Source: Bilabrum cf. latius
Lineage: Eukaryota
Direction: 5' to 3'
Length of the DNA stretch: 64,000 nt
Assembly: GCA_965178125.1 (NCBI GenBank)
Contig: OZ237746.1
Location: 744,001 to 808,000 of the forward strand
The position numbers and the translations under genes were made by a program. Under the pieces are notes generated by a model. That model ran no database searches, was not told where the DNA came from, and was given only the letters and a program-made list of their open reading frames with translations. Positions within the stretch are counted from its first letter, which is position 1; each line of letters begins with the position of its first letter. Below, piece by piece: positions 9,283-64,000 of the stretch.

Positions 9283-12200
9283 ATGTAGGCATCAACTCTG
9301 CCAATTTACGGCGCAATAGCCCCTTTGGTAGTGTCTGCAGCGATTGCAGGGGCATGCATGGCAGCTGGTAAACCTGAAACCATGATTGCTGTCGCTGCCG
9401 TGCTGGGCGGAGCACTCGGTTGCCTTGGTGCTGGTGGCTTCTTCTCGGCCGCAATGCTTTGCATCGCAGCAGTCTGTGCGTACATTTGGTCTCCAATAGA
9501 TACTTCGTACTTCATGCGGCCATCCTGGCCTCTTGCATACGCGGTGTGCGCACTGGCGGCTGGTTTCGCGGCGGGAGCTGTGGGAGCTTTCGCGGACGCC
9601 GTTGCAGCAACCATCCAAGACGGGGCGGTAGCGGGAGGAACCGGCTTCGCTGCGCCGGCACCATGCGAGAAAGCTGCAAACCTGAGATCTCCTGCCGCTG
9701 CAGTTCGCAAAGAAGCCGTGTCAACCATCCCCGAGCAGACCCAAGTGCCTCCCACCTCTTTTGCTGACGTGGTGATCGTCGGAGCCGGGACCGCTGGGGC
9801 TTCGCTCGCGGCTCGCCTCGCAAGGGACGGGAGGAAAGTTGCAGTTGTTGAGAGCCACATGCAGCTGGAGGTGAGCCATCATTTTCCCGGCCGAATTCCG
9901 CGTGTTGCAACACTGCTCTCTTCGCGTCAAGCGCAAAGTCGCTTCCATGAGCATTACAGCTCGGTGACCGCCGTGCAAGTCGACTTACACCAATCCTTGT
10001 AGTGCATTGTACAGGTTTGGTACCGTTGCGACTCCCAAAGCCCACCCGTTTGATGGGCTGCTGACCGCCGATGCCACACTGTGCAGTTCCGTTGGGGCCT
10101 CTTCGTCTGCCATTGGAGTCCGCTTGCAATTCGCCCATATCCAATCACATGCATTTCTCCAAAATACTCCAGTCCCACCGCATTCGCATTTGATTCATTC
10201 GCAGGCGCGCATCGTGGGCGAGCTCATGCAGCCTGGCGGCGTGCGCTCCCTCGAGCGCATGGGGCTGGCCGACGCATGCAAGGACGGCAGGGCCAGGAGC
10301 GTGCGCGTGGACGGGTACGTCGTCGTGCCCAAAGCAACGGACGCGGGAATCCGCGACGAGTCCATGGCCAAGCAGATCGCCGAGAAGGAGCAGCCCGAGG
10401 GCGACGGGTTCGCCAGAAGGGACGCGCGCATCGAGGGGGCTGTCCTCCTCAAGTACCCCAGCACGGACCCGGAGGGCGGGGCAAGGCACTTTGGATTCGG
10501 AGCCCAGGCGGCCGACGAGGCCGGGGCCGTGGAGGCGCAGTTTGGCGAGGAGACCCGCCGCGTCAACGCCGCCCTCGACCTGGCCAGAGCGGCGGGCGTG
10601 GGCGCCTAGTCCGAGGAGAAGGAGCTGGACGTGGGCGATGGGCTGACGGACGCGCAGTCAGGGGCGCTTGCGGGGCTGGGCGGGGCCGGGGGCAACGGGA
10701 CCGGGACCCTCGTCCGAACGTCGGCCTCTGTTCCCCAGGGAACAAGCCAGTGGGGCGTGGACCCCATGCCCAGGGGCCGGTCGTTCCACAACCACCGGTT
10801 CGTGGCGGGGCTGAGGAGGCTGGCCTTCAGGGAACAGAACGTGCGGCTGTGCGTGGGGCGGGCGAGGGATGTCCTGCGATGCGGTGGGGAGGGTGACGAG
10901 GTGGCCAAAGCGGCGGCTGCCGGGGACGCTCGGAGGGTCAGCGATCTGCTGGTGGAGGCAGAGGAGGAGGCGCTGGGGCGGGCGCTCGGGGAGGAGGAGA
11001 AGCAAGTGGCGGAGCGGGTGGCGAGGCAGATGACGAGTGCCGCATCCAAGGCCTAGGGAACTAGCGGTAGGGGTGGTCAAACCGGCGAGGGGCGCGCGGT
11101 TGGGATCCGCTGGGTGCCGCACGGGGAGAGCAAGCCAAGGACCGTGCACGCCCCCCTTGTGGTCATCGCCGACGGGATGTTCTCGGGTCTCAGGCGGAAT
11201 GTGACGAGTGCGAAGCCTAGGCTGGTGAGCCATTTCGTGGGCCTGGTGATGCACCACCCCCCCATGGAATCCCCCCTCCCTTACAGGCACAGGGGGCACG
11301 TGTGCCTCACGGAGCCCACCCCCACGCTGGCCTACCAGATCAGCCCGTGCGCCACCCGCCTGCTGGTGGACTGTCCCACCCTCCTGCCCTCTGATGACGG
11401 GCTGTACCTCCCACTGGACGGAGAGGGAGAAGCAGAAGGGGAGCGCAAAGAGGACGGCGAAGGCGAAGAGGAGAAGAAGGACGAAGACGAGGAGGAGGAG
11501 CAAGAGCAGGAGGCCCAGGGAACAACGGACGGTGTTCCCCCGGGTGCTGTGAAGGACCTCAAGCCCGGCACGAGGGTGAAGAAGGTGGTCAAAGACAGCA
11601 CGCTGGCCGCCTACATCCGCTAGCACACGCTCCCGCAGCTCCCCGCGGGCTCCCTGCGAGAGGCAGCCAGGCGCGCCCTGGACACCCAGGTGCCCCAGCC
11701 GTGCGGGAACAGGTACCTGCCCGTGGCCCCCGAGGCCGAGGAGGACGGCCGCGGCAACGGGTCCACCGGCGTGGTGCTGCTGGGGGATGCATGGAACATG
11801 AGGCATCCGCTCACCGGCGGGGGCATGACGGTGGCACTCAAGGACACGGAGGCGCTCGCCGATGCGTTGCGCGGCGCCACTCTGGAGGAGCTGCGGAACC
11901 AGGGAGTGGAGGACCTCGGCGAGGAGCAGGCCCGGAAAGTGTCCGTTGACCTGGGCAGCCCCGCGGCCCTTGACGCTGCTTTGGACGGCTGGAAGGCCAG
12001 GCGCACCACGCACGCCTCCACGGTTAATGTGCTTGCCAACGCACTGTACGACGTGTTTAGCGTGCCTGAAGAGAAGGAGACCAAGTCGGGTGGGTCAGGG
12101 AACAAGGGGTCAGGGAACAAGCTGGACGTCGCGCTACAGGACCCCGCCACCCGCAAGGGTCTACGGGACGCGTGCCTGAACTACCTGGGCATGGGCGGGG

Positions 12201-12544
12201 CGTGTTCCGCCGGCCCCGTGCATCTCCTCGCTGCACTGACGCCATCCCCCGGCGTGCTCACTGCGCACTTCTTCTCGGTTGCCTTCAAGGCAGTGGGCGA
12301 TTCCGTGCTGCCCGTGCCCACCCCCTCCTCGGTTCGGCAGGCGTACATGACCGTGTGGGCCGCGTGCAGGATCGTGATGCCGCTGCTGGCGGATGAGAGA
12401 GCCACGCCGCTGGCCTGGCCGGCTGTGCAGACCGCCGTGAACCTCTTGTTCCCCTGGCGGGACGCGCACGTCAGTGCCGTGCCCAAGAGGAGTAGGAGGG
12501 GGAGGGTGGGGGTGGGGGTGGGGAAGAAGAAGGCAGTGGCATGA
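9283..12544 (+). CDS. SQLE: Squalene epoxidase (monooxygenase), ~975 aa; exons 9283-9870 and 10205-12544
   Basis: Motifs DVVIVGAGTAG, RIVGELMQPGG, GRSFHNHRF, APLVVIADGMFS, SHFVGL, LLGDAWNMRHPLTGGGMTVALKD, TVNVLANALY. GTGAGC...GCAG phase-0 intron. In-frame TAG at 9286, 10607, 11054 and 11621. The start codon is inferred. Confidence 0.93.
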
Positions 12545-12751
12545 GGTGAAGAATTCGGGGGTGTGGGGGGAGGTGGTGCTGGCGAGTGTGTGAAGCCCAC
12601 GCCGGTGAGTCTTCGTTCTAGCTAGGAACGATGCGCTAGTGGGTTGGTGGGTGGTGGACGGTAGATTTGCCGTATGGGCATGGGGGCTCTGGGGCCTTGT
12701 GCGACTGTGATGCTCATTGTCTATGGTGACCAACTGCGGTCACGATGGCTG

Positions 12752-13851
12752 ATGCTGCCATCACCTGTTCGCCTCGCCCTCCTCTTTGGGGCTCTCTGCT
12801 TCCCGGTAGCGACGATACCTGTCGCTGAGGTGTGCTGTGCCGTGCTGTGCTGCTCGTTTTCTCCATGGGTGACATCGAATTGAGTCGATGGTAGGAGTGG
12901 CACGCGTCTTTGGGGTCTGCTGCGAAGTTGTGTGCTGGTTGCTCGGTGGATGTGGTGATTTTGAGGTCAGGGGAGGCCGGCCCGCTCCTGCCTGACGGGG
13001 ACTGACTGGCGGTCTTTTCGATTGTCTTGTCGGTCTCCTGTCGGCGGCTTGCGGTGGCACTGTCCTGCTTCAAGTTACCGTGTCCTTGCGTTGGCAGCCA
13101 ATAGCAGGCCATGTATCTTGTGTGTTTTTAGTTCGTCAGCATGACAGTGGCTAATCTTGCTTGCAGTACTGGCAGGATTGACTGTGTATCCACCCAAGGA
13201 CTCGCCCGGCTCCAACTTTAGGATCCTCGTGCGGAGGGGTGCACTGCCGACGCCCGAGGTGTATGACTAGATTGTCACCTCCAACGGGTCCTTCATCCCC
13301 TCGCCATCGATGACCCTGGAATCGAGCCCCGCTGACCCCTTGTCCCTCTTTTACATCGGGGTGCAGATGAAGGAGGATGTCTTCACAGACATGCAGGCCG
13401 GCGACTTTGAGATCCGCGCAATCGATCTGTGAGTGGGATCGATCGGTGGATCCAGGATTGGTTCATCGCATGGCCTGTCCTGCTCCGACCTCTGCCAGCC
13501 TCAAAGCCGCTCAGCGGCAGCGACTAGCGGCGCGCAGGTCTGCTCTTGGCGCTTTGGCAGACTGCGGCGAGAATGGTCCAGGTCTTTATTTTGCTACTTG
13601 GAGTGTTTGTATTTGCTGTTTCGTTGATCAGATTCAGGCAACACTCAAGAAATATCGACAGGGATCCATCCTGTGGATCCACTAGGACCACTCCCTGCCT
13701 CACTTCCACAACGTTGGATGCCCAAGCCAAGCCAATCAATCGGATCCAAAGATCCTTCGGAGTAACGCACCCTGTCAACGCAGTCCGTCCTCCCGAAGCT
13801 CATGCAGACGCGACCGCCATTCCAAGCCGTGGCTCGCCTAAGCGAGCATGA
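12752..13851 (+). CDS. Probable small multi-exon secreted or membrane protein with a PPC-like beta domain; exon structure only partly resolved
   Basis: Signal-peptide-like MLPSPVRLALLFGALCFPVATIPVAE at 12752. Internal exon 13167-13428 (TTGCAG acceptor, GTGAGT donor) reads ILVRRGALPTPEVYD(TAG)IV...LFYIGV. The 3' exon is uncertain. Confidence 0.4.
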
Positions 13852-14020
13852 CACGCAGCTGGGAAGGCGAGGCGCGCCGCCCGCTTCGCTCCGGACCCGC
13901 TCCAAAATCACATGATGCGCAACTCACTCACGAAAGGAGCCACTATCTCTCATCGCCATCACCACCATCGATAAACGGCGACGAATGCCCAAAAAGCAAG
14001 CAATCGCTCGCTCCCTCTCT

Positions 14021-16714: not shown

Positions 16715-16807
16715 GGTCAGAAGAAGGAAAATGGTTGCTGGTTTGGCGCTGATCTGATTTATTATGTATATAACGAGTACCTTACTGGCATGAAAACACT
16801 CAAAGTA

Positions 16808-17640: not shown

Positions 17641-20600
17641 ATGGCGACTCCTGAAATTCGAGCTTTATCACTGCAGCGCGCGAAGGTCAGGGCAAGGAGG
17701 GGCTAGCAGCGAGCAACGGAGCTGATCAGGCAGCGCCTTGCGGAGCTGCCGTCAGAGCCATCCGTGGACCATTCATGGTTCCCAGGATCTCGAACCGCTG
17801 CTCGAGCTGAATTTCTGCTTCGTGATTCTAGACCAGTGCTCGCGCCACACACAAGAGATGCGATGCCGAGCGGCAACGACAGCACTTTATCCTCTCAGGC
17901 GGCATCGTCTCATCATCGGTACGGTGGGAGCAGCCGCTCCAAGTCGCGTGAAGCTACCTAGGAAAGGCAATCGAGGCATCGCGTTGAATTACGTGGCACG
18001 GGCAAACCGCTCGCAAACTCCGCTGCCAGAACGCACTAGCTGCATGCAGCTGCAAAAGAGGGGCATGCAACCGTTCGCAGAGCAGCGAGCTCGCACGGGC
18101 GACAACCGGCGGGAGGTCGAAATCAACGAGGATACCACGGGGTATCGAAATAGCAGAACATCAATGCGTTCACGCTGCAAGACCACACGACCCGCACGGC
18201 CGCGAGGCGAGCGCGAACGAGAGGCGGAAAGAAGCTCTGGCAGTTCGAGACGAAGAAGCAAGTGCTCGGTGCTCGCACTCCTAGTAGAAGCTCCCATGGG
18301 AGGGCCCGTCCCATGACTGCCAGCACCACTAGAAGAAGCAATACACTGCGTATGAATCTCAACGATGCCTGCCAGCACAACTCCTAGAGCTCGGCACAGC
18401 TGCCGACGCTGCCAGGAGGATCTGGCCCATCCAGCCCGGTGCGCGCCTCCGATGGCGGTGGGAAGGAAGATGAAGATCAAGTCGGGCGCGACTCGAAGGT
18501 CGAAGAGCCTATGGATGCACCGCTGCGGCAGGCATCAGCATCAGTATCAGCAGGAGCAGGAGCAGTGGTGGGGTCGGGGCTACCGGAGAGCTCCGCGGGA
18601 GGACTTGGAGCCCAGAGGCTGCCGCCATCCTCGTCCTCATCTTCATCTTCACTGGCCGGCGACCCGACCGGCACGCGGGGCGGGAGTGGCCATCCAATCG
18701 GAGGCGGTTCGGCTCGCGCGAGGCAGCGGCCGTCCACCGCGCTGCCTGCGAGACGCACTCGTCACACCGCTGGCCGCTCCACGCGGTCGCTGCTGCGGCG
18801 CGGCACGGCCAGCACCAGCCAGCTCAGGGGAAGTGTGACGAGTGCGCTGGGTCCGCAGGCGTCCGCGGGTTCCGGTTACGCCGAGCAGTTTGTGCGTGCG
18901 ACGGAACGGGCAGCCATGTTCTCTGGCGAGCCGGTTGTAACCTTAGAACCGAGGGCGCACCCGGCCGTGGCCCGGCCAACACCCGAGGAGGCAGCGCGCC
19001 GGAGAGCTTGCGGTGTGACGAGTGGAGGAACCGGTGCCGGGGTGCCCGCCGCGATGGACGCCGGGCTTTTGGCACTGCAGCGATCCAAGGGTGTGACGAG
19101 TGTTGTGGAGCTTCCGTCCATGGGGCTCGCACAGATGAGCAGCGTGCTGGATCTAGAGGAGGAGGATCCGCACGAGGGTGACGGAGGTGAGGGTGGTCAA
19201 ACTGGAGGAAGCAGTGGTCAAACCGGCGTGGCCAGGACGACCACTCGGCGCCCGACCACCGCCCCTGCGAACGCCCCTTTAGCCCCCCACCAGCACCACC
19301 AGCACCACCAACCATCCCACCGGACAGCACGCCTGCCGAAACCGCGCCGGATCGGCATGCGCCCGGGGTCTCGCGCCTCCCAGGCCGGTGCGTACCACGG
19401 AGTCATCGCGGGTGACGAGCGAGCCTTCGGGGTAGACGCTGCGGAGGACTCCGCTGACGTCACAGGAGGTGACTCATCGCCCGCGTTTCCGCACCTCGAG
19501 TCGCGGGCCAGCGTCACACTCGCCGACGAAGGTTCGATCGAGACCGTGGAGGAACAGTTCGCCAGGATGCTTCGGGCGTCCGCTGGCAGGGCGCGGGCAG
19601 GGACGGGGCCCCTGGCCCAGGGCACTCGTCACACCGCTGATGGCGACGAGGACGGGGACCAGGACCCGGCAGGCGATCAAGCGGGCCATCGTCAGCACTC
19701 GTCACACCGTTACGCCACGTCAGGCGGCGTGTCACCATCCTCCCTGCAGAGGTCCCTTGCGCTGCAGGACGCCTCCAAGGAATGGAGGGAGCAGGAGCAG
19801 GAGCTGGACGATGACGAGGACCAGGACGAGGGGGGAGTGGAGCCGTCCCGGGGTGAGCACTCGTCACACCGGCTCGCCCCACGTCTCCACAGCATCTCCC
19901 TCCGGAGTGGGGGGGAGGCAGACAGCCTGAGATAGGCGCAGCCCAGAACCAGCCCACTGAGGTCCACGGGGGGCATCGCCGGGGGCGGGAATCGATCCCG
20001 GGACCAAGGGGTCGGATCTCGGGCGACATCATCCACTCGTCGACAGCGCCCACACTCGTCACACGCAGTACGCGGGCAGCTGTCCGTGCGGCTTGCCCGC
20101 GGGATGGCCAGCACCGCAGGGGCCATGGCTCTGGACGCGGCCGAGGCCTCCCGCAGGCGGACGGGCCGGGGCCAGCCGGCGACGCACCTGCGCGCCGCTT
20201 TGGACACCATGGCCAGGCGGAGGGGCGCCGTGGGCACCTTACTGCAGTGCACTTGCGAGGTGGACGCGGCAACCTACAGGGACGCGTGGAAACGGACGGA
20301 GCTGCGGCATGGGGTGCAGCGCACGAAGGTGCGGGCCAGGGAGTCGGCGGCGCGAGGCGGTTCCTCTGGGGAGGACGACTGGAGACAGGAGGGTCCTCTT
20401 CGCAGGGTGTTCTCGTTCTACGCGTCTCTGTTCGAGCCTGCGCAGCAGCTGGTGGGCGGCTCGGGCGGCAAGGGCGGGGCCACGAGGGGCAGCATGTCGG
20501 GAAGCAAATACGCCAACGAAACCGTCTCTTTCGGGGAGGCTCTTTTTTAGTGCCGGGACCTGGGTATCGTACCCGCGCTCCTCAGCCGCAAGGAGCTGGA

Positions 20601-22866
20601 GTTCTGCTTCGCCCACAGGTTGAGACCCACCAGCGCCATGGCCTCGGTGACGGAGCCAAGGCGTGAGGAGATGCTGGAGAAGTTGCGGGACCAGGACCTT
20701 GACTACACTGCCTGGCTGTGCTTCATGGCCACAGTGGCAGTGTTCGCATTCTCCAAGCCGCAGGTCGCTATTTCCGGTCTGGGGCTGCCCGAGCCGGCGG
20801 CTGCTCCTTTGGCGGCAGAAGCGGCTGCTGATGGGACCGCCGGGGAAGATGCATCGCACGGTGGTGCACAACCGCACCTGTCTGTTCCCTCGGTGTTCCG
20901 CACCGCCGGCAAGGACCTGCAGCTGATGAGCCCGTCCCTGGAGCGGGCCGTGGCTCTCGAGATAGCGGCTGGGGAACACAAGGGGGTGGGGGCGGCTGGG
21001 GAACACAAGGGGGTGGGGGCGGCTGGGGAACAAGGAACGGCGGGTGGCGACCGCAGCGGGCTGGGCCTCAGCACAGACGACTGGCGATGCAACCCGCAGC
21101 TGGTGCGCGCGCGGCTGGGGCAGAGCGACGCGCAGAAGATCGCGCGGTTTATGCGGCACACTGCACTGCACGATCGTGCCCACGTGGACAAAGTCCTCCA
21201 GTCGGTGGGCAAAGAGACCTCCCTTCTGGTCAGCTCGGGTGGGGACAGAACCTCATACCTGAAGCAGAACACCTCCATCGTGCAGAATCAGAAGAGGGTC
21301 GCCGCTCTGCTGCACACGCTCCACTCGAGACACTCCGCCGCCAGGGGGCTGGTGCTCACCGATGGGTCGGGTGCCCGGCTGCAGACGTCATGCAGGAGGT
21401 CGCTACCGAGCTGGGCCACGAACGGTGTGGTGCTGGCAACAAGCGGACTAGGCAAGCTGGGGGGTAAGGTGGTCAAAGAGGAGAATGCCACTGGAGCTGC
21501 TGCATCCGACCGTACACCCATTGGAATGGCCGGAGGCAGGGGAGGCCGGCGTGCCTCCGTCGCCCAGATGACCCTGGTGAACCCCATCGAGCGGGGGATC
21601 GCGAGGTCCTTTGCCGCTAACCAGGGCTATCTGCACGGAGACAAGAGCAAATCCAAGGGCAAGTCCGAGGGCAAGTCCGAGGGCAAGTCCGAGGGCAAGG
21701 GGTAGGGGGAGTCGGGTGAGGGCCAGTCCGCCGAGGGGGGCAAGAACAGGGCTGGCAGTGGCAGTGTGACGAGTGCCAGCCGCGGGCCCGTGGCCGACAA
21801 GCAAGACACACGTCAAAAAAGCAATGCAGCCGACGGGAGGAGTAGTACCGGGGGAATGGGCCAGGGCCAGGGCAGAGGCAGAGGCAAGAGTCGGGGGGGG
21901 AGCAAGGGGGCCAGCAAGCCGGGGGCTGGGCTGCCCGTGTCGAGCCTCATGATGACGATTGCGGATGCCGCTGTGAGAGACAGGGGGGTGGGCAAAGCGG
22001 GGACCGAGAAGGGTTGGAGCTACGACGATAGCGTGCTGGCGATGTCCGGGCGGGTGCGCAGGGCTCCCGGGATCGATCCCGGGAGCAGGAGCGGGGTGCT
22101 GCAGCGCGGTCCCGGGGAGGCCTTCGAAGGCACCTTGCAGTCTCTCGCCAGGCACGACAACTTGAGCTCGCTGAAGGGATTGCCGCGGCTGCAGGCGCAA
22201 GTCGCGAGCGTGATGCAGGCGGGTGCATCGCATGGCGGTGCAGGGGGTGACAGTCGGGTGCTGGACGAGGACGAGGCGCTGGCTTTGGCCACCTCTTCCG
22301 GTGCGGGGTCAGTTGTGTTCCCTCACGAGGCCATCAAGGCGGCCAAACGCACCATGGGCCGCCTCTTTGACCAGCTGGATGGATTCAGCCTCGCCCCACG
22401 GAGACACGTGTGGAAGCGTGTGACGGCCCCTGGCGCGCCACCCTGCGTGCACACGGGGGTGATGGCCGTCGGTCGGGAGTACGCGTTCCGGATCAGGTGC
22501 AAGAACGCGAGCCTGGACGTGGTGCGGGTGGGCGTGCAGTGTGACGAGCGCGCCTTGCGTGCGACGGGTGCGACGGTACGTCAGACGGTGAACGTTCTAC
22601 CCACTGGCATGGAGGCTGTCGTGAGGCTCGTGATCAGGCCCCCCACCCCCGTGTGCAGGGTACTGCAGCTCAAGGTGGTTGCAACCAGCGCGGCGGGCAC
22701 GGTAGAGAAGTGGGTTGTTCCGGTGCTGGTGGAAAGTTCCGTTGAGATCGAAGCTGCACCTCCGCTGGTGCACGTGGTGCAGCCGGGGATGGGGGGTGTT
22801 ACGGGGCAGCAGCTGGCAAGGGGAGCCGGTGAGGTGCGGGGCACTGTGGTGCCGCCTTGGGGTTGA
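17641..22866 (+). CDS. Large hypothetical protein (~1741 aa), mostly low complexity, with an EF-hand-like helical segment and a C-terminal Ig-like (ASH/PapD-like) domain
   Basis: Single frame from ATG 17641 to TGA 22866 with 8 in-frame TAG (17704, 17959, 18037, 18151, 18385, 19933, 20548, 21703). Domain calls are pattern-based (LRRVFSFYA...CRDLGIVPALLS; YAFRIRCKN...LPTGMEAVVRLVI). Confidence 0.7.
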
Positions 22867-50577: not shown

Positions 50578-53500
50578 TCATGTCGTTCCCGCCTGCCCCT
50601 GCCCCTGCCCTTGCCCCTGCCCCTGCCCCTACCCCTGCCCCGGCCCCTGCCCCTGCCCCTGCTACTCCGGCTGCCCCGCTTGCGCCAGCATGCTCGGTAG
50701 AAGGCACGCGGCCAGCAGCCCGGCCCTGGGTGCAGCGGACTGCAGCGCAGCACGGAGGACCCGAGGCTCAGCCGCCGCTTTGGCCACGTTCTTCTGCGAC
50801 GTCTCGTACACCTAGAGAAGGTTCGCTGCGTTCTGCGAGCGAACCTTCTTGTCGGTCGACCACGGCACGTGCCTGACCTGCTGCAGAAACCCCTACCGCT
50901 TGCCGGTTGCAACCACCCGCTCCGCTGACGCCCACGCGGCCGCCACGGCGCCGGGGGCCAGGGGCAGGGGGCCCATGAGGGGGTGCCCATCGGGAGACGT
51001 CGCGCTCGTCACACCATCACTCGTCACACCCATACCGCTGGGCGAGGACGAAGCGCCGCTGGCACCGCCATCGTCACCGCCATCGGCCTGGACGTCGCCA
51101 AGCCGGAACTGCGGCAGGAGCAGCCCCGATTTGATGTGACGAGCGCCCTCCACGCGTGCCTTCTTCCGGCTTGGACCCTCTTCTTCCAATTCGTTCTGCG
51201 GCCGATGCTGCCCCGCCGCACCGAGGTGCATCGCACTGCCGCGGGGCTCCCATGCCTGCGCGTTGGCGTGCCACACCCACGTGCTCTTGGCGCCGTGCAG
51301 CGGCAGCGACCGGCGCACCAAACCGAAGCGCCCGGCCGCCGCCGCCGCCGCCCGGCGCCTCCAATCCACCATTGGACGGGGCACCGCCAGCCCGAGGTGA
51401 CGAGTGAGGCCGGCATCATCCCAGAGCTCCCTGCCTTCCGATCCGCCTGCCGAACCATCGCCGCCGAAGCCCCCTTCCCCCTACAACGCAACCAACGAAC
51501 CTTCCTCAGCGAACGTTCCGTTCCCTGTGCCGGTCCCTCCCACCCCCGCGCGCGCGTACACCCTGGCTTGTTCCCTGGCCTCCTGCAGCACCTCCTGCCC
51601 TAGCAGCCCCTGGGCCGCCCGGAGCCCGTGAGAGGCCCTCTGCGCCTTTCGCCACCTCGCCCTGGCTTTGGCCACCACGTCGGGGAGGGTGTGCGCGGGG
51701 AACAAGCGACAGAGGGGACACCTCCAGTCCCCCTCGGGGAGACCGTGCGCGGCCAGGTCGGGCGCGCAGTAGGTGTGCCACACGCAGGGGCACGAGTCGC
51801 ACAGCACCACGTTCCCGCCTGCGCTGCATCCCGCGCACACGGTGAAGTGACCGTCACCGTCCGTCTTCCACGCTTCCACCATGGCTTCGTGCGCCTTCTC
51901 CTCCGCATCATCATCATCGTCCTCGTCTTCCTCCCCACCTTCTTCTTTCTACTCGCCCTCACCGCCTGTACCCGCGGCTGCGCCCCCCATGCCCGATTCC
52001 GAGTCCGACTCGGATCCGAACTCGGAATCGGAAAGCGATCCGCTGTCGGACCTGGAACGTCTTTGGCCACCCCCTCCCATGCCCCTCCTCTCCCGATCCC
52101 TCTCTTTGACCACCTCGAGAAGCAGCTGCGAGTCTACCGTCTCACGGATCCGGTCCAGCCCCGGGACCGACCCTGCATGATCCTTGGAGCTTTCTTTTTT
52201 AGCGGTCTTCGCACCACCAGCGCCACTAGTTCCCCCACCGCTATTGTTCTCTTCCTCCTCCCTTTGCTTCCTCCTCCGCTGCAGCCTCCTGAGCCGCAAG
52301 CACCTGTCCGCCACCGCCTCGGCCTCCCCCCCCTCGTACTCCAGCAGGTCACTAGCCCGCGCATTCCCGTAGTAACACCCGGACACGATGGCGGCCACCC
52401 GGCCTGCATTCAGCGTACTGTGCTCCTCACAGGAACTGACGAACCAGCGGGCCGCCTCCACATCCAGGGGGGCGGGGCCCTCCCCTTCAGGCAGGGAAGC
52501 GGCCCAGCGCACCGCAGGGTCCTCGGAGAACACAACGAAGGCATTGCCCGCCTCCAGCTGTTCAACGGTCGACCGTTGTTCCCCAGACGCTACGGGGTCC
52601 ATGGGCAGCACCATCGTAGTGCCCAGCTGCCTGTGCTCCTCCCCGGCTTGTTCCCTGGCCCGCTACACCCCATCGCGGCGGGCCTTCCTCAAGTACTCGG
52701 AGCCCCAGGCGTACAGCCTTGTTCCCTGGAGACTGGGGCCCATGTAGGACCCGGTGCACCAGTTGTACACCCGCCTCAGGGAAGCGTCTTCGTCCTCACC
52801 GGCGAACACCCCATGCCTCCGCCCGCTCCTGGGGGGCAGGCGTCCCCTCCACCACCGGCCAGCAGCAACGGCGTACCCCCTCTTGACCACGGAGGGCAGG
52901 CACTCGAGTTCCTCCACCATGGTGGCCTGCGCCAGCCGCAGCCCCCTCTCGATGGATGCTCTCTCCCTCAGTGCCACGGGGTCCCCGTAGCCCAGGCCGG
53001 CGCACGCGCGCAGCATCTGGAGCTCCCGGCCAGCACGCGCACGACCCGGAGCCGAAACACCCCCGCTCACCTCACTCGTCACACCGATCCTCCCGAACCT
53101 GGCTCCCGGCCTGATCAGGTCCTCCCCGCTCTGCAGCAGCATCAGGGCAGCCTCCAGCACGTGCTTGGTCTCGCCCACGGCCCACCCCTCGTGCTGCCCC
53201 CTCGACTGCCTCAGCGCCTCTGGCGTGCTGCCCTGGGTCACGGCCTGCGCCACGTCGCTGATGAGGTCCAGCTGCTCTGCCCCGTCGCCCAGGGCACCCA
53301 GTGCAAGAGAGGCCTGCAGGGCGCACAGCCTACCGGGCTGCAATCCCCTCGAGCCCTTCTCGTGCACCGAAACTATGGCTCCGGATACCTCACGGAATCC
53401 GCCTGGCGAGGGAACCTTCCTGAACCACTCGTCACACAGCGCGCGGTAGGCCTTCATCTGGTACTCGGAGAGGAAGGCCAGCGCCGGGTCGGGCGTGCCG

Positions 53501-56500
53501 TGGTGCAGCCCGCACCTGAGCCTCCACTCGGCGTAAGATCGGCTGAGGAAGTACGACTGGGCCGTGGCGCTGCTTTGGCCACCCTCCACGGCCCGCGTGC
53601 TCCTGGACTGGGTCCCATCGCCCCCTAGCGCCCCGCCTGCACCGCCGCTGCTACCGCCGCTGCCGCCGCTCTAGCCACCGCCCCCGATGCCGCCAGCCGT
53701 GCGCCTGTGGTGCCTGCCCAGAGCAGCTGCAGCCCTGGCCGCCGCCCCGCTTTTGCCACCCCCTTCCCGCTTTGCCCGCCTCAGCTGCTCCTGCAGCAGC
53801 TTGTTCTTCCAGGCGTGCCCGATGGTGGATCCAACGCTGAACCCCATAGCCGCCACCTGAGCCCTGTACGCCTTGGGAAAAAAGAAAGCGGGCTGCAAGG
53901 GGTCCACGCTCCGGGCATCGAACCTGTGCTCCTGCTCGCTGAGAGGAAAATTCACCTGAATCCGGACCATGGGAGGATCGGCCGCGAGGATCCGGAGCGC
54001 GGTCTATGCCTCTGGGTGCTTGTCTTTGTCCACCTTCGGGGCCACTTGTTCCCTGCAATACCGCAGCCCATCCACCAGATACCCCAGGCACTTTTGCCTT
54101 AGCAGCCCGTCAAAATCAGCGGCTGCATCGGCCGGGTGCCTCCTTGAAGGCCCCAGGCACCTCTCGTTCGTCCTCCGGTCCTGCATGCCCGCCCTCCATC
54201 TCGTGCTGCTGTGGCTGTTCGTACCCCTGTACAGCTGCTGGGAAGGTGCCAGACCACTGACGTCGGGCCACACGCACATGGACCGGAAGACCCGCATGTG
54301 TTCGGGGGACCCGCCCGTGTGCAGCCGGTTGCCGCCTTGGCCACCCCTCGCTGCGGCCAGCTGGCAGGCGGCGGCGTATCTCTAGAGATCCGTTGAGTAC
54401 CGGATCGCCTCTTTGGCCACCCTGTCCACTCGGCTACCGGTGGAATCGGATGATGACGAGTGCCCGCTCTTGCTGCTGCTTCCCGCACCACCACCACCTG
54501 CCTCTGCCGGTGTCTCTGTCTCTGTCTCTTGCATGGGTGGCTAAGCAGGTGCCGATGAGGAAGACGAAGACGAAGACGAAGATGCCGAGGTTGCTACCGA
54601 TGGCGGTGAGGATGACGCCGCCGCAGCTGACCCATCCCCTGCACTCGGCTCCGAATCCCCCCTGCCTTCCTGCCCAGCCTCCATCAGCCTAGCCAGCACC
54701 TGGAACACAACGGACCTGCTTGTGTCCAGAGTGCCAGTCGCACCACCGTGGGATGCATTAGCCTGCGAAGAAACAGTCTTTGCTGCGGTGGGAACCCCGT
54801 TACCGTTGCCGGCCACAGATTGCGCGGCGCCATTCTATATTCCGCTGCCAACTCCACCGGCAGACACCATGGGCGTCTGCCCCGCGCCCGCCTCCCCCTT
54901 CCCGCTCGTCACACCACCCTCACTCGTCACACCCGCCAGCCTGGCCTTCAGCACGTTCCTCGCCCTCACGGACTCCCTAGGGCCCATCATGAGGGCGAGG
55001 GCGATTCCCTCGGGCACGGCCACCTGGCTATCCAGCAACGGTGGGGGGCCCGAGTCGCTGACGATGGCCGCGGGGGGGAGGCCTAAATGCCTCCACCGCC
55101 GGACAGTTTCGTCCAGCTGCTGGGAGGGCGCCCCGGAGGTGGTGCCCCCGCCCAGAGGGCCTGCCCCAGCCCCCCCGCCGCTGCGGCTGACTCGCGTGGC
55201 GGTCGCTCCGGCACCCGCACCGGCACCCGCCGATGAAGATGAAGATCGGCCGCCCGACGAGCGGTCGCGGTTCCGAGAATCGGAGCCTGTTCTCCCCCCG
55301 CCAGCCTTAAGCCCCACCCCCCTGAGAGGAGCCACGAACTGCCCGTGCCCCAGCTCCGTGTATAGGGGGGGTGCCCTGGCCGCCCGCGCCATCGACGGGA
55401 GGAGCGCAGGCGGCACTGCGGAACCTGGTTGCGCGGCGCCGGTTCCGCCGTCATCACCCTCCCCCGGTCGGAGAGCTCCCGCGGCCCGCAGCAGCCCCCG
55501 CAGCACGCTCGGTCCCAAAGGAAGGTTCACTGCGAACCTCAGGTCAGCCGCGGCCGTGACCACGTTCTTGCGGAGCGAGAACATCTTGCCGCCGATTGCA
55601 ACCGAATCGCGGGTTCCGACCACGCCCGCCGTGAAATCCATGGTGTTGGCGGGCCAGAGAGGCCGCAGGCACAGGGGTAGTGACGTCAGCGCCACGTCCG
55701 CGATCGGATCAAACGGGCGGATGTCGACTTGACCGGCGCCGGGTGGTGACCCTGCGGAACCAGAGCTGGAGGAGGACGATGAGGATGAGGACGATGACGA
55801 CGACGAGGACGACGATGCCGGTGGTCCTGCAGCTCCTCCAATTGCTTTCCCCTGCGGATCGCCACTACCGTGCCCTGCACCCGCCAGCGCCGCCTCTTTC
55901 TCAGCCTCTCGGAGCCGCAGCACCTTCGCCTGATAGGACTCCGGGTGGATCGCAATGGAGTTTGTGGCGAACGTTCTGTAGGGTCCGGGAACGACCGGTC
56001 TCCTGATTCCGGTTTGGGCGGGGTCCGACTGCCAGGGCGCCTTTGGCTCCACGAGGGGCGGCTGCGGGCGGGCAGGAGCCAGTGCCCCGGTGCCCTTGCC
56101 TCCGGCCATCTTGCCAGACAGCAGGTCCCTGCCTCTGTAGAAGCGGGTCATGCAGTCCGCCACCCACGCCGCCCGCGCCATCGATGTGAGCGTCCCGCGG
56201 ACGTGCCTCATCTTGCCGGCCAGCCAGAGGGCGGCTCTGAAGTTCGACCCGCTTCGGTTGAGCGTCACGCCGCGGAGCAGCTTCGGGAAAAACTTCCAGT
56301 CGGTGTGCTCCTTGCTGGCTCCGCGCTGGTCCAGCCAGTCGAGAATGACCGCGATCGAAGGCGGCGGCTGCGGGAACTCGCCCAGCTCGATGGGAGCATC
56401 GGTGTCAAGACTGTAGCAGAGCCGCCTGGATCGCTCCACGTCATCCGTTGATGGCCAGTTCACATCTTCCGCAAGTGCCTTGTCGTATTTCTCCTTCCAG

Positions 56501-57805: not shown

Positions 57806-60800
57806 CCGTGCCACCCACCTCCTTCCCCTCCTTAATCAGCCGAGACAGACGCGCCTCGGCCCCCCGCAGCGCTCCGATCGCAGCCCCTTCCCATCGCCGG
57901 TGCAACGCGCAGCTGCCCCTCGACCGGAGGCAGCAGGCGGCCTGCATTTCCTGTCTGCAGCGGTCGTGGCAGGGGATCGTCACCCGCTCCACGGCGTCCA
58001 GCCCATCATCTTCATCTTCATCTTCATCTTCATCTTCATCTTCTTCTTCTTCTTCTTCATCATCTTCTTTGTCTTGTCCATCTTTGCCCCTATCGACGGC
58101 TGCAGCGCCTGCACTGCCGCTCGCCCCACCAGCTACAGCGCCTGCACTGCCGCTCGCCCCACCAGCTACAGCGCCTGCACTGCCGCTCGCCCCACCAGCT
58201 ACAGCGCCTGCACTGCCGCTCGCCCCACCAGCTACAGCGCCTGCACTGCCGCTCGCCCCACCAGCTACAGCGCCTGCACTGCCGCTCGCCCCACCAGCTA
58301 CAGCGCCTGCACTGCCGCTCGCCCCACCAGCTACAGCGCCTGCACTGCCGCTCGCCCCACCAGCTACAGCGCCTGCACTGCCGCTCGCCCCACCAGCTAC
58401 AGCGCCTGCACTGCCGCTCGCCCCACCAGCTACAGCGCCTGCACTGCCGCTCGCCACTGTGCCCGCCTCCTGCCCATCCCCCTCACTCGTCACACCGATC
58501 CCGGCGAGGAACAGCAGCGCGCGCCCCACGAGACCCAGGGCAGGCCCGTCCACCAGCTCCCGCGCCAGCGCCCACCGGCGGGCGCACCTGGATCCGCCGG
58601 CGGCCCAGAGACGTTTCGCGATGTTATCAGCTGATCCAGTCCTAGGGAACAACCCAGTCCTAGGGAACAACCCGGCATCGTCACTCGTCACACATGCAGC
58701 GAGCAGGGCGGGGGACCAGCCGCAGGGCCGCCGGGAGACACGCGACTAGTGGTCCGAGTTTCGGCTCCGAATCCCGAACGGGGCCCCGATCCATTCCTCC
58801 GCAACGGAACCAGCGCCGCGCAGCACAGATCGGTGCAAACCGTCTGCAACTCCCGCGGCCCTTCCAGAGGCGGAGGCTGATGCATCGGTGCCCTTGCCCC
58901 TGCCGCTGCCTCTGCCCCTTATCCTACCCCTGCCCCTACCACTCTCCATTCCCTATAAACTCCCATCCCCCAGTCCCACGCGAGCCGGAGACACGTTGAT
59001 TCCCAAACCGGAACCAGAGCCACTCGTCACACCCCTCATCGGGATCGACATCGGGAAGGGCTCCTCGGGCGCCTTCACCCTGCCCACCCTCCCCGCTATT
59101 TTGGCTCCGAATCGATCCGACCCCCAGGGCAGGCAGGCCTTCCGACAGGGAACAATCACGGGAGCCCCGGCCCATGATGCCGCCGCCAGCAGCCCCTCGT
59201 CCTCCTGCCCCTCCATACCCGATGATGCCTCGCCGATCCCCGATGATGCCTCGCCGATCCCCGATGGTGGCTCGTCCCTTGCCTTCGCTCCACCGTCACC
59301 GTCCTCCATCAGTGGCTGATTCTGCTTCTCCTCCTCCTGCGATCCTCCATTGTTCCCTGGGACCCACCCGTCGGTCAGGTCGTCCAGCAGCAGCAGGATG
59401 GAGCTCCGGGCGCATCGCACTGCGACCAGCACGTCAATCGCGGCCCCAAGCCTGTCAGCCTCCACATCGGCATCGGCATCGGCATCGCGCTCATGCGCTT
59501 GCGCATGCACAGAGCCATCGTGCTGCTTCTCCTGCTGCTTCTCCTGCCGCTGATGCTGCTGCCTCTCTACCATCGCTGCCGCCCCGATCGCACTCGTCAC
59601 ACCACTCATAGCCCCCGCTCCCTGCATCGCCGAGGAACCGCTCCCCTGTCCCGATAGTGCAGGCAAATCTGACAACGGTTCCCCAGATTGTTCCCCAGAT
59701 TGTTCCCCGGCCCCGTGCCTCCGCATCCTGGACCTCAAGACCTCTCGCGCGCATCGCACGCCGCAGTACCGTGACTATTCCCTCCTCGGCCGGTTGCAAC
59801 CGGGGCGCAGGCATGCCACGTTGTTCCCTGGGACAACCATCCCACCGTGTGCCCCCCCCTTCCGCAGGTGCCTCATGGGGACACCCTCCAGTTCACATTG
59901 CTCCTCCTCCTCCTCACCCCTGCCACTCCCCTCCATCGGCACCTGCGACCGTGATGATGACGAGTGCGATGATGACGAGTGCGATGAGGCAAGGGTCGCC
60001 TCCTGTTTCGACTAAACGACAGCCCCCCCCTAGCCCCTCGCGAGCTAGCCCCCCGTGTCGCATTCGTCACACCCAGCGGCGCCGGCCCCGGTTCTGGCGA
60101 TCGCTCGCGAGAACCAGTCGGGCTCGGCGCCGCGCATCGGGCGAGGCAAACCCTGGTGTGACGAGCGCGACTCGGGGTCGGCAGGGGCCAGCAGCATGGC
60201 CCTGCCCAAAGACGCGCGCCCCACCCTCCTTCCCATGCCCGCGCCCCACCAGACTGCTCCTGCGACTGCCACGGATGGTGGTGGTGATGATGATGATGAT
60301 GATGGTGCACCTATGGTACGAGGCACCAGCACGGGCATCCGGCCAGCAACACTCGTCACACGCAACGAGCCGTGGGTGAGCAACCGCGCAGCCGATCCCG
60401 CCCCGCCCCCCATCCCCACATCCACCGCCTGCTGGGGGATCGTCACCAGCTCACGCCAGGCCCGCACGGCTGGGCCCCGGCTGTACGGGCCCGCACCAAG
60501 CCGCTCCCGCCACGCCGCAATTGCCCGATTTCTGGCTCCGGTTCCCTCCCACAGGTCCCCCAAGAGATCGAGTTCCCTGATCCTACCGGCAGCATCATCG
60601 TCATCACCACCGTCGTCGTCACACCAGCTCCAAGGGGCCGGGTCTTGCCCAATGCCAGCCTCCGATCCACCTGTGGACTGAGCCGAGGCAGTGCCTTCGT
60701 TTGCCGCTGCTTTCGTGCGCTTGCCCTTGGCCTTGCCTTTCTTGCTGCCCTTCCCCTTGTCTTTCTTGCTACCCTCCTCCTCGCCCTTGCCCCTGCCCTG

Positions 60801-63800
60801 CTCCTCCTCCTCGTCCTCATGCATCCCCTTCGATTTGCTGCACATGCTGGCCAGCAGAAGCAGAACAGCGGGGCTGGCCAGGCTCAGCCGAGCGATGGCG
60901 CGGGCCGGCACAGACTGCCAACCACCCGCACTCGTCACACCGCCATCGGATCCCGCATGCACCTCGTGCGCTTGCTGTGACGACGAGAACACGTACTCCA
61001 GCACCAGCATCGGCCCCTGCTCCCCCCCACCTTTCCCGTCCCCCACGTTGCCCACGTCACCCCCCGCATCCACCCGCACCCGCGTCCCGTCCCCCCCCGT
61101 GCCCTTCCGCCGCAGCCCCCTCACGGCCTCCCTCGCCATCCACGCGGCCTCGCCCAGCGCCACTGGGAGCATCGTCCTCGGCTCGTAGTACCTGTAGGCT
61201 CCGAATCTGTTCCCTGGGAGGTTGTTCCCTGTACCCGGCTGTTCTGACATGCCAGAACCACTCTTATCGCGCTACACTGCATCTCCGTCGCCGCTGTTCC
61301 CCAGGGGGGGGCCCGACTGCAGCGGCGCAGTCGCGTGTGCTTCGTCCCGAATGCGGGCGTACGCGAGCAGCTCGGAAACCGTGGGACCCGGAGCCGGAAA
61401 TACCTCTCCCACACCGGGGCTCCTCTGCTAGCCCCCGCCGCTTTGACCACCCCCCTGCATCGCCGCCCCCATGGTCTGCATGCTGCCCACGCGCAGCAGC
61501 TGATCACCCTCGGAAGCGGCCGTGCTAGCCGCCCTGCTCGCCGCATCGTCCTCCATCGGCAACGAGCCCGAGCACGGTACTAGCGCCCCACGTGTGCCAG
61601 TGCTGGTACCCGTACCCGTACCTGTGCCGGTACTGAGGATCGGGAGTCGTTCGTTGGCGGAAATGAGCGGGGCAGCAAGTCCACCGGTGGATTGGGGCTG
61701 CGGCTGGTCACGCGCCCCGGCATGCGATTTCTTGGGGCTGCTAGTGGTGGGGCTGCCAGTGGTGGGGCCGGGAGGGCCGGTGGGGCCGCTCGCAGTACCT
61801 GATGGCCCGCCGTGCGCACCACCAGCATTGCCGATGCCGCTGCCGCTGTCGATGCCGCTGCTGCTGCTGCGACCAGATTTTGTTCCCAGAGACGTGGCTG
61901 CACCCGATCCACCGGTAGATATTTGCACTGGTGCTTCCGCCACCCGTGGAGCTTCAGCACCAGCACCAGCACCAGCACCAGCACCAGCACCCGCACCAGC
62001 AGCCCCAGCTCCCCGCAGCACCGCCCACAGCACCCTCGCGACAGCCCCCGGCTGCACCCACACCACCCCCTGGTCACGGAGCAGGGAACAAATCGGCTCC
62101 GAGTCCGTGTCCCACCCACAGGCCCGAAAGGCCTCCTCGGCCGCTGTAGCGGAGCACAGGCTCGCACCGAACATCCTGCAGCAGGACTCGAGTGCGGGAA
62201 GGGCCGTGCGGATGAGCCGGAGGCCAGCGGCATTGGCGGTGGAGACGTTCTTGGCCTTGCATGCCTGGACCAAAGCAGCCCAGGCGTCCCTCAGCCGGTC
62301 TCCCAGGCTGAGTGCAGCCAGCGAGGAGTTGTCCACCACCTGGTCCATGTGACGAATGCGGCGCAAGGAGATGCCGAAGGCGGCCAGAGCGCCGTGAAGC
62401 TGGCCGGGGCTGGGGCCTGTACCGGCGCCCGCTCCAGCAAGCCCCAAGGAGACATGGGCCGCCCCAGGCGCCCTGCCCCCCCTCGCGGCGACGACGGTGG
62501 GGGGGAGAGGGCCCGAGGTTGCAACCACCGATCCACCGGTTGCAACCTCGGCGCGCCCGTCCACTCCCGTCCGCACCACCCGCGGGCCCAGGCCGTCGAG
62601 GCCGGGCACGTCGCCCAGGATCGCCTAGTAGGCCCTGTCCGGGGATACCGGTGTGACGAGTGCGATGGGTGGGGACTGGGATGACTCGGAGCCGCTCCCG
62701 TGGTGGCGATCCAGCAAGGCTTGTAGCCGCTGTCGCACGGCCGCAGCTCTCTCCACAGAGCCGTTGAGTTCCATGAGATGCGGCTCTTTGGAATCTTGCT
62801 CTGAGGGGGGCTCCATGGGTCCACCGGTGGATTGGCTACTGCTGTTCCCTCCGACTGCCTGGCCCCCCGCAGCCGAAGCTCTCCCAGCAAGGAACCTGGA
62901 AATACCCCCCGGCTCTAGGATCCCCTGCAGCGACTCGAGCACACACCCGTCCGACCTGTCCAGCACCTGCCCCTGCAGCGCAGCGCCGGCCTCTGGCCTT
63001 CCCAGCATGGCCAGCTGGCTCTCGAGCTGCTCCGCGCGGGGACTGATCCGACCCAGGGGACGGTCCAGCCAGGGAACATGTGTTCCCTGGGGCGGGCCGA
63101 CCGCACTCGTCACACCGGCTGCCTCCATCTGCACGTGCGTGATGTCGAGCAGCCGGATGCGTCGCATGCCACCGCGCATGCGTGGTACGGTGCAGCGGCC
63201 CACCCGCTTGGCAATGGTTCGGACCAGGCTAGATGCCGCTCCGACGGAGATGACCGCGCGCGCCTGTGCGGTTCTGAAGCTGCCACCGTCCGCGCTTGGA
63301 TGCAGTACCATCCAGCACGCTCTCTCCAGGGAGTGCACCAGCGAACGTTCGCCCACGAGCACGTGCCCCGCCAGCTCCAGGTCCCCTGGGAGCACCTGGA
63401 AGGCTGCCTCCCACAGCCGGGGTGCGTGGGAGTCCAGGCCACTGGCACTGGCACTAGGACCCGGAGCCGATCCACCGGTGGATTCCGCCCCGGGGGTCCC
63501 CGCGGATCCGGATCCGGAATTGGATCCGGAGCCGGTGCCGATGCCGGTGCTGTGCTTTCCTGAGGGCCTCACAAGCAGCAGCAGCACCCGCGCCACAGAG
63601 TCCACCAGGATCTCCCGGACGCTTGCCCCCCCACGGGGTTCCGGTCTAGCGGCGGACAGAGTTGCAGCCAGACGATCCAGGTTGCCATGTGCGTGCGCAT
63701 TAGGCCCTCCCCCCGCATTAGGCCCTCCCCCCGCCTGCGCCTCACTGCTGTGCATCTCCATGGCCCGCATGAATAGATCCACCAGCTGCGACATCCTCGC

Positions 63801-64000
63801 GATCACGTCGGCCGCCCACCGTTTCCTAAACTCCCGCCTCTCGTGTTCCCTGAGGGCGTCCCGGTGCACGCGCCAACGAGCCTAGCCACCGGTTGCAACC
63901 GCCCATTCCGTCACCGCGATGCAGTAGCTGTCCAGGGAACACAGGCTGCACTTGGGCTAGGAATGGGTCCTAGATGATGACGATGACGATGATGACGATG
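57792..64000 (-). CDS. Very large hypothetical protein (>2000 aa, 5' end outside the window) with a C-x2-PGC...SRYC-x3-C zinc-binding-like motif
   Basis: Six ORF-track pieces share one frame and are joined across about 11 TAG, ending in TGA 57792. Motif CLRPGCNRPRRE(TAG)SRYCGVRC at about 59750-59815. Confidence 0.75.
58104..58455 (-). repeat. Coding minisatellite, 33-bp unit x ~10.5 (ASGSAGAVAGG)
   Basis: Perfect tandem copies are visible. Confidence 0.95.

Follow-up and report, generated by a model that had tools for sequence, protein, structure and literature searches.

Here we describe an exact 13-base word, GGTGTGACGAGTG, that is scattered through the protein-coding sequence of a 64,000-nucleotide stretch of DNA from Bilabrum cf. 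latius (contig OZ237746.1, positions 744,001 to 808,000 of the forward strand; the whole stretch is referred to as the window, and positions are counted from its first letter). The word occurs about ten-thousand-fold above codon expectation, and the constraint that keeps it acts on nucleotides rather than on protein. A preliminary description of the window had reported a 12-base motif, GTGTGACGAGTG, which is one base shorter than the full unit; the counts below refer to this 12-mer.

The window contains 32 exact copies of GTGTGACGAGTG, 14 on the forward and 18 on the reverse strand, compared with none in each of 100 dinucleotide-preserving shuffles. They extend from 18756 to 63115, with none in 1-18755 or 27726-44510, and the reported absence of the motif from the leucine-rich repeat (LRR) genes, the cathepsin gene, and the ankyrin array holds for exact copies. 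All fifteen positions singled out in the preliminary description are exact copies on the strand given. When up to two mismatches are allowed, 54 matches are found between 11199 and 63115 (32 exact, 10 with one mismatch, and 12 with two) against a shuffle expectation of 5.15 (standard deviation 2.4, largest 12). The exact class dominates and the two-mismatch class is near the chance level (about 5 expected); the earlier figure of roughly 50 exact or near copies is reached only by counting these two-mismatch matches. The base preceding GTGTGACGAGTG is G in 25 of 32 copies and the base following it is C in 17 of 32, beyond which the flanks carry no information and, among the 32 exact copies, form no families. 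The commonest one-mismatch variant, a T-to-C change at position 11 (5/10), is synonymous in the frame that reads GVTS. Composition fails to explain the count: codon shuffling within the eight open reading frames (ORFs) described below gives an expectation of 0.10-0.23 for the 9-mers of the word, of which 22-30 are observed, and a model of independent codons predicts 0.0023 copies of the 12-mer in approximately 45 kb, where 32 are found.

The window is eukaryotic, with GT..AG introns that are spliced out in contigs and eukaryotic enzymes; Pfam matches include squalene epoxidase, a papain-type cathepsin, ankyrin repeats, acyl-CoA oxidase, and eukaryotic glutathione synthase. The isolated in-frame stops that break its otherwise long open frames are almost always TAG. 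Such codons lie inside conserved enzymes (at 11621 in squalene epoxidase, 24727 in acyl-CoA oxidase, and 27179 and 28292 in glutathione synthase), with further examples of this kind at 43190, 46382, and 46955. Reading through TAG yields eight long ORFs, every one of which ends in TGA, with 50 in-frame TAG among their 11,620 codons in total. Thus, TAG is a sense codon and TGA a stop in this DNA, and gene calls in this lineage will be wrong unless TAG is read as sense. The residues aligned to TAG are mixed—E, R, or T in one alignment; Q (four), K (four), S (two), and others in the LRR paralogues; E-E, weakly, in a profile alignment; and, in orthologue P0167 (see below), both W and E—and do not settle the amino acid that is meant. 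Long ORFs of the metagenome relatives considered below also contain in-frame TAG.

All 32 exact copies are located inside these eight ORFs, 22 in sense and 10 in antisense orientation relative to the gene. Sense copies are read as (G)-V-T-S (17) or C-D-E-C/W (5), and antisense copies as TRHT (4), HSSH (3), or LVTP/L (3); the frame with an internal TGA is never used. The five readings listed in the preliminary description are therefore all present, although in very uneven numbers (17/5/3/4/3 for GVTS, CDEC, LVTP or LVTL, TRHT, and HSSH), and its statement that the motif occurs on both strands and in several frames stands with the addition of a strong skew, 17 of the 32 copies sharing the GVTS frame (p = 3e-5 against equal use of the five open frames). 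The V-T-S tripeptides encoded in the 11,620 codons are spelled GTG ACG AG[T/C] in 20 of 20 cases, with no other codon combination, a spelling that codon usage predicts for only about 8% of them. Because these codons are invariant and five frames on both strands are in use, the identity of the word is held at the nucleotide level, as the preliminary description had proposed. We also considered a model in which a strand-neutral word survives in each frame in proportion to the frequency of the codons that it creates. This model predicts 13.1 copies for GVTS (17 observed), 6.0 for CDEC (5), 8.1 for HSSH (3), 2.5 for LVTP (3), and 1.2 for TRHT (4), which reproduces the ranking of the main classes, and it predicts a sense share of approximately 60%, compared with 69% observed (p = 0.20). 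Coding constraint accounts for most of the skew, and the residue favours the sense strand. The copies were not found to follow in-frame TAG codons or to favour any part of the ORF.

In the two genes that can be aligned with many homologues, all five exact copies lie inside lineage-specific in-frame inserts, three of them in an insert of acyl-CoA oxidase and two in inserts of glutathione synthase that are missing from 60 of 60 homologues. The claim that copies sit mostly in inserts is thus upheld in these genes, the only two in which it is testable. All four inserts of the two enzymes are in frame and open. By comparison with the human enzyme, the one-mismatch copy in squalene epoxidase (11199) brings no extra residues, and since it sits in an ungapped conserved stretch, the word can be written into existing codons without added length. 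The acyl-CoA oxidase insert also has a second possible outline (25072-25512, reverse strand), bounded by GGTAAG and CCTAG/G (a slash marks a splice border here and below) 441 bases apart and in frame; the protein would match its homologues better if this segment were spliced out. A single contig crosses it, without splicing, and belongs to a run that is probably of DNA; the segment may be an intron or a coding insert.

The word is retained in a spliced mRNA contig. Contigs of two runs fit the window exactly from 26621, after a CGCAG acceptor, with 313-320 earlier letters mapping elsewhere, and a matching T/GTGAG donor of this glutathione synthase intron lies at approximately 26514; the junction is drawn from the two contigs that start to fit there and is not in the joint table. 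One of these contigs is unbroken to 28674, spanning both glutathione synthase copies and all three inserts, and a contig of a third run spans 27589-28153, which covers the copy at 27714. Unbroken contigs over 18840-20982 and 23216-26092 come from run X5, flagged "probably DNA", and are no proof of expression. The ORF frame runs on across every exact copy. Six introns were delimited (14722-14872, approximately 15265-15460, 16029-16216, 26514-26620, 29346-29762, and 29860-30063), and contigs of three public runs skip the three cathepsin introns and the two introns near 29.3-30.1 kb. The splice sites are unusually uniform, with T/GTGAG donors (T at -1 in 5/6) and CGCAG/ acceptors (6/6). The first cathepsin intron starts with GTGAGACGAG, which matches the opening ten bases of the word except at one position. 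The possibility that the copies are 5' splice sites of short in-frame introns was rejected: the contigs are unbroken, the frame continues, and acceptor-like CGCAG within 80 bases downstream of the copies is not enriched (5 found, 4.0 expected), although the segment from 27714 to 27785 would form a 72-base in-frame GT..CAG unit. Several apparent joints whose 21-letter sides end at 18832 and 27101 seem to reflect further loci containing the word rather than splicing.

A metagenome scan with a pattern of two word copies 160-190 bases apart returned 34 loci, most of which are unrelated tandem satellites with a GC content of 0.42-0.53. In these, the 12-mer recurs in arrays with periods of about 9-44 bases (L001, L006, L008, L017, L019, L022, L027, and others), which we regard as a coincidence; L021 and L030, being unrelated or repetitive, were excluded, and L007 duplicates a portion of L032. 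Three loci (L004, L024, and L032) have a GC content of 0.58-0.60, long ORFs with 2-8 in-frame TAG, and dispersed copies of the word. In their 17.5 kb there are 13 exact copies, no one-mismatch copy, and a single two-mismatch copy. All 13 exact copies have G at -1, 12 are in sense orientation, and 10 are in the GVTS frame. GC content at third codon positions (GC3) is 0.53-0.61 in these loci versus 0.71-0.82 in the window, and there is no long DNA match between them; they therefore represent other loci of a different species. At least two species therefore share the word, which also offers an inexpensive way of detecting relatives in metagenomes, the two-copy pattern having yielded four such contigs (three non-redundant) among the 34 loci.

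A search with 1,118 residues of the last ORF against 1.84 billion representatives found one true relative, P0167 (69% identity, 11% gaps). The other matches all fell on a low-complexity repeat (query residues ~850-1080), drawn by the 33-base-unit repeat at 58099-58455, and included no second true relative. In P0167, GGVTSAG corresponds to the copy at 60929 and LRVTS to that at 60350, while GCDEC and HSSH correspond to the one-mismatch copies at 60061 and, in antisense, 60156. Overall, 16 of the 17 word-encoded residues are identical. At the 60156 site, HSSH stands twice in P0167, at a distance of six residues, whereas the window shows a single unit and a gap of six residues, which indicates that copy number changes by 18-base steps. 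Word-encoded peptides at matching sites in this orthologue also make a recent burst of insertion unlikely. For glutathione synthase, the close relatives P0121 and P0146 were inspected, and neither covers the copies.

Self-comparison of the window revealed no dispersed repeat around the copies. There are only three adjacent pairs, 15-18 bases apart (one of two exact copies, two in which the second copy has one mismatch), indicating that small tandem duplications of 15-18 bases add copies locally. Copies of one kind also cluster; for example, eight lie within 18756-20064. A micro- or minisatellite array was rejected, as the other neighbour distances range from 73 to 16797 bases. Inverted pairs occur at 76-77 bases (two) and at 428-532 bases (three), and the interiors of the latter share nothing beyond 13-22 bases; a miniature inverted-repeat transposable element, other terminal-repeat element, or in-frame palindromic element was rejected because neither flanks nor pair interiors contain a shared body beyond this length. 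A neighbour distance of 73-78 bases recurs in 4 of 31 intervals (within 18756-20064 and 48311-48398; two direct, two inverted), and a similar 72-base spacing is seen once in a relative (L032:5797-5880). The suggestion that a tiny insertion process left the motif behind is disfavoured as the principal explanation by the matching sites in P0167, by relatives of different GC3 that carry the exact word and almost no decayed copies, by the one-mismatch copy in the ungapped squalene epoxidase stretch, and by flanks that share nothing.

K-mer counts and the codon-shuffle test show that GGTGTGACGAGTG has companions, at least two to four further exact words with a matching distribution. CCAGGGAACA is present in 21 copies (18 sense), read as ARE[Q/H], QGT, or PGN, and the palindrome GGTTGCAACC in 15 copies, 12 of which are read as V-A-T; both are also found in the metagenome relatives. 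The companion GTGGTCAAA is in sense orientation in 10 of 10 copies, and GTGG[T/C]CAAA and a 12-base palindrome around ACCGGT are weaker companion words. Companion words span 10735-63941 (e.g., 27207, 44277, and 52649; 41530-42514; 62517-62547). Every counted word is common in the GC-rich ORFs, where copies of one kind tend to lie close together. There are none in 1-8000 or 32001-40000 and none from about 28,520 until 41,506; the interval 28001-32000 holds only two, one CAGGGAACA and one GGTTGCAACC. Although long, unspliced, and TAG-using, the three LRR genes (2-9291) contain no counted word. Some companion-word copies sit in conserved, ungapped protein stretches. Two copies of CCAGGGAACA lie 15 bases apart at 61208-61232 (reverse strand), where P0167 has a five-residue gap and PGD in place of PGN; this looks like a lineage-specific tandem duplication of 15 bases by which one word became two.

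Table 1. Copies of the word GTGTGACGAGTG and associated features of the window.
Feature	Position	Strand	Reading and context
Exact copy	18756..18767	-	antisense to ORF 17425-22866(+), TRHT
Exact copy	18833..18844	+	sense, (S)VTS
Exact copy	19013..19024	+	sense, GVTS
Exact copy	19091..19102	+	sense, GVTS
Exact copy	19623..19634	-	antisense, TRHT
Exact copy	19696..19707	-	antisense, HSSH; GVTS if weaker ORF 19514-20581(-) is read
Exact copy	19858..19869	-	antisense, HSSH
Exact copy	20053..20064	-	antisense, HSSH
Exact copy	21764..21775	+	sense, (S)VTS
Exact copy	25089..25100	+	antisense to acyl-CoA oxidase gene (-), TRHT; in 155-residue lineage-specific insert
Exact copy	25107..25118	+	antisense, TRHT; 18 bases from copy 25089; acyl-CoA oxidase insert
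Exact copy	25396..25407	+	antisense, LVTP; acyl-CoA oxidase insert
Exact copy	27109..27120	+	sense, glutathione synthase gene, CDEW; in insert
Exact copy	27714..27725	+	sense, glutathione synthase gene, GVTS; in insert; covered by RNA-type contigs
Exact copy	44511..44522	+	sense in ORF 40553-47725(+), GVTS
Exact copy	44877..44888	+	sense, GVTS
Exact copy	48182..48193	-	sense in ORF 47953-49941(-), CDEC
Exact copy	48311..48322	-	sense, CDEC
Exact copy	48387..48398	+	antisense, LVTL
Exact copy	48815..48826	-	sense, CDEC
Exact copy	51018..51029	-	sense in ORF 50578-56766(-), GVTS; one-mismatch copy 15 bases on (51003)
Exact copy	53073..53084	-	sense, GVTS
Exact copy	53426..53437	-	sense, CDEW
Exact copy	54921..54932	-	sense, GVTS; one-mismatch copy 18 bases on (54903)
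Exact copy	58484..58495	-	sense in ORF 57792-63998(-), GVTS
Exact copy	58682..58693	-	sense, (C)VTS
Exact copy	59021..59032	-	sense, GVTS
Exact copy	59591..59602	-	sense, GVTS
Exact copy	60350..60361	-	sense, (R)VTS; peptide at matching place in P0167
Exact copy	60929..60940	-	sense, GVTS; peptide at matching place in P0167
Exact copy	62651..62662	+	antisense, LVTP
Exact copy	63104..63115	-	sense, GVTS
One-mismatch copy	11199..11210	+	NVTS; ungapped conserved stretch of squalene epoxidase
One-mismatch copy, T to C at position 11	22539..22550	+	others with this variant: 49202(-), 51003(-), 54903(-), 60156(+)
One-mismatch copy	60061..60072	-	GCDEC, synonymous in its frame; GCDEC also in P0167
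One-mismatch copy	60156..60167	+	antisense, RSSH; HSSH twice in P0167, six residues apart
Acyl-CoA oxidase insert	25076..25540	-	155 codons in frame, residues 129-283 of ORF 24728-25924; three copies
Glutathione synthase exon 2	26621..28750	+	contigs of two runs fit from 26621, after CGCAG acceptor
LRR genes, RNI-type, three paralogues	2-2146, 2543-6109, 6439-9291	-	63-73% identity

We tentatively read GGTGTGACGAGTG as a recognition word for an abundant sequence-specific factor on double-stranded DNA, an explanation to which we give somewhat less than an even chance; that a factor binds, that its target is DNA rather than RNA, and what role it plays are points that we infer. The word would be the most frequent member of a small set of exact 9-13-base words that the organism and its relatives keep in the exons of their GC-rich genes, and the factor would read it in either orientation; the binding site for an abundant factor put forward in the preliminary description would fit the data. 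With almost all DNA of this compartment coding, the word might survive only where the encoded peptide is harmless—that is, in lineage-specific low-complexity stretches and in frames with usual codons, the latter of which would give an excess of the sense G-V-T-S reading. Copies would stay put across species and multiply locally by the 15-18-base tandem duplications. A reader of DNA is favoured because the word is used in both orientations, companion words are palindromic, words cluster by kind, and the skew is mostly coding constraint; the two palindromes (GGTTGCAACC and the 12-mer) hint at double-stranded reading, since this is the usual form of such sites. Several observations pull the other way. 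The frame model fits imperfectly (chi-square p = 0.025), the sense share rises to 34 of 45 when the relatives are added (versus 0.60, p = 0.02), and CCAGGGAACA is in sense orientation in 18 of 21 copies versus a predicted 59%; the sense excess and the imperfect frame fit both hint at an effect on RNA or one coupled to transcription. Most protein sites are less strict than a word that is nearly invariant over 12-13 positions, which is more typical of guide-RNA pairing or template copying. The word-free LRR genes are not explained by a general chromatin or replication role. Finally, site conservation in P0167 is protein-level evidence from one gene, and it exceeds background only modestly (p = 0.017 with gaps, 0.08 ungapped). 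A broader form of the idea, which we regard as possible though rather doubtful, is that a UAG-sense eukaryotic lineage marks its core-gene exons with exact 9-13-base words, kept by a genome-wide reading system or drive; such words would number about 0.5-1 per kb and be conserved across species, and word-free multicopy families such as the LRR genes would be set apart from the "self" core genes.

An element of the mRNA, such as a site for an RNA-binding protein, small guide RNA, or small nuclear ribonucleoprotein on the sense strand of long exons, appears unlikely but deserves weight. The sense share of the word here and in the relatives, together with that of CCAGGGAACA and GTGGTCAAA, is what such an element would produce; both glutathione synthase copies are carried by the contig that starts at acceptor 26621, with an RNA-type contig of another run spanning 27714; and exactness at all positions suits base pairing. 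Moreover, the word as GGT/GTGAC matches the intron donor T/GTGAG at -2 to +4 and, resembling a local 5' splice site with +5 changed, could be a non-spliced landing site of the U1 type, its antisense copies then being tolerated by-products; true T/GTGAG is rare in the ORFs (3 sense copies). Nevertheless, 10 of the 32 copies are antisense, one antisense site is kept in the orthologue as exact HSSH, two companion words are palindromic, and the sense excess of GTGTGACGAGTG alone is within the codon model. The surroundings of the copies show no RNA structure signal (mean pairing probability 0.58 versus 0.62 in control windows) and no enrichment of downstream acceptors, and Rfam and tRNA scans of the window gave no matches. 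Somewhat less probable still is a molecular drive without function, in which biased repair, gene conversion, or templated short-patch copying makes near-matches exact and spreads the word, with selection perhaps only removing copies whose peptide hurts. Bacterial uptake words are thought to be maintained by such a drive, and the predominance of exact over one- and two-mismatch copies in both species sets, the copies in dispensable inserts wherever this is testable, the clusters of one kind with their adjacent pairs, the doubled HSSH of P0167, and a frame pattern that fits tolerance rather than use are all consistent with it. Conversely, several words would require several drives or one odd one, and we know of no eukaryotic enzyme with such 13-base specificity. 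Four public runs contain no presence/absence or indel difference at the copies, which says little because all match the window exactly at those positions.

Two further explanations carry far less weight. That the copies are what is left of mobile elements or introns (the terminal repeats of tiny transposons, the ends of introners, or exonised introns of which the 12-mer is the conserved remainder) accords with their location in inserts, the inverted pairs, the edges of the acyl-CoA oxidase insert, and the likeness of the word to a 5' splice site. This reading is largely refuted and now very improbable: pair interiors and flanks share nothing beyond 13-22 bases, the four inserts are in frame and open and those of glutathione synthase are kept in RNA contigs, acceptors are not enriched, the word does not mark one particular end of the inserts, and sites are common to the orthologue. 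A short linear protein motif, G-V-T-S, serving as a modification or cleavage site under protein-level selection, would account for the 17 of 32 copies read as GVTS or xVTS (10 of 13 in the relatives), for a commonest one-mismatch variant that is synonymous, and for the peptides kept in the orthologue. As the sole cause it is refuted by the identical codons of all 20 V-T-S and by the 15 of 32 copies that use another frame or the opposite strand, some of which are conserved, and we consider it scarcely credible.

Among known systems, the behaviour of the word is closest to that of bacterial uptake signals and of words of the HIP1, Chi, or KOPS type, without membership of those families, because the host is a spliced eukaryote. 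The DNA uptake sequences and uptake signal sequences (DUS/USS) of Neisseriaceae and Pasteurellaceae are likewise exact words of about 10-12 bases that are common to related species and whose exact copies far exceed near copies. Such words are over-represented hundreds- to thousands-fold at roughly one per kb, and GTGTGACGAGTG, with 32 copies in approximately 45 kb, agrees with this; like them, it is used in either orientation and lies within genes where frame and protein tolerate it. Unlike here, DUS/USS belong to competent bacteria with an uptake receptor; in this spliced eukaryote, for which no receptor search was made, uptake cannot be assumed, no paired copies acting as terminators were seen, and several words coexist. 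HIP1 of cyanobacteria likewise recurs throughout coding DNA as a short exact word that different species retain, and two of the companions share its palindromic form, but HIP1 is an 8-base prokaryotic palindrome, whereas GGTGTGACGAGTG has 13 bases and is not palindromic. Chi and KOPS are over-represented oriented words read by a DNA-processing machine, and the orientation of the present word flips near 47.8 kb along with gene direction; those words are 8-mers, however, whose skew follows replication, whereas here it is largely coding constraint. Rickettsia palindromic elements resemble the copies in being repeated DNA in frame inside unrelated genes, in dispensable parts of proteins, but they are ~100-150 bases long with internal structure, and here nothing is shared beyond 13 bases. 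Sites of general regulatory factors and multi-zinc-finger proteins have a similar length (12-13 bases), independence of orientation, clusters of one kind, and conservation across species; they usually lie outside coding DNA and vary at some positions, in contrast to copies that are all in exons and fixed throughout. The 2014 Eimeria genome paper reportedly describes trinucleotide and telomere-like heptamer repeats inside genes. Eimeria thus offers another case of protist proteins with low-complexity inserts written by specific DNA repeats in certain genome compartments, although as tandem runs of short units rather than single dispersed copies with few adjacent pairs.

The literature searched contained nothing comparable for eukaryotic exons; in the portions of full texts returned by a string search, the 12-mer, its complement, and three companions appeared only as primers or chance strings. 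To our knowledge, no eukaryotic nuclear genome has been described that keeps such exact words inside its exons. Bacterial exact words of genome-wide distribution have each led to a reading machine—uptake receptors, RecBCD, or FtsK—and if a factor or drive reads the present word, it would provide a new handle on the genome organisation, repair, or expression of this lineage. If a vocabulary of such words exists, eukaryotes would have an equivalent of the uptake-, Chi-, or HIP1-type words of bacteria. In addition, a signal at the DNA level would here be shaping protein sequence, the word writing G-V-T-S, C-D-E-C, and H-S-S-H into dozens of proteins. The UAG-sense code noticed alongside adds to the interest of the word.

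Several other features of the window were recorded. The three LRR paralogues have a lower GC3 (0.54-0.60) and the highest use of TAG (6-8 per 1000 codons), and TAG is kept at some of their paralogous positions. Over 10500-30499, runs from four studies and with four distinct organism labels match the stretch without differences in its GC-rich part, and differences are confined to 28920-29218 and 30103, in repeated LRR-type sequence. The repeat of the last ORF (58099-58455, reverse strand) consists of near-perfect tandem units of 33 bases that encode GASGSAGAVAG, in about 11 copies. A weak PHD-finger match (E = 1.2e-4, below the Pfam cut-off) at residues 1643-1686 of ORF 50578-56766(-) is the only domain hint among the five large ORFs that have no known homologues. 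The last residues of the acyl-CoA oxidase ORF before its TGA are A-K-L (23018-23029, reverse strand), which we take to be an ending of the peroxisomal targeting type.

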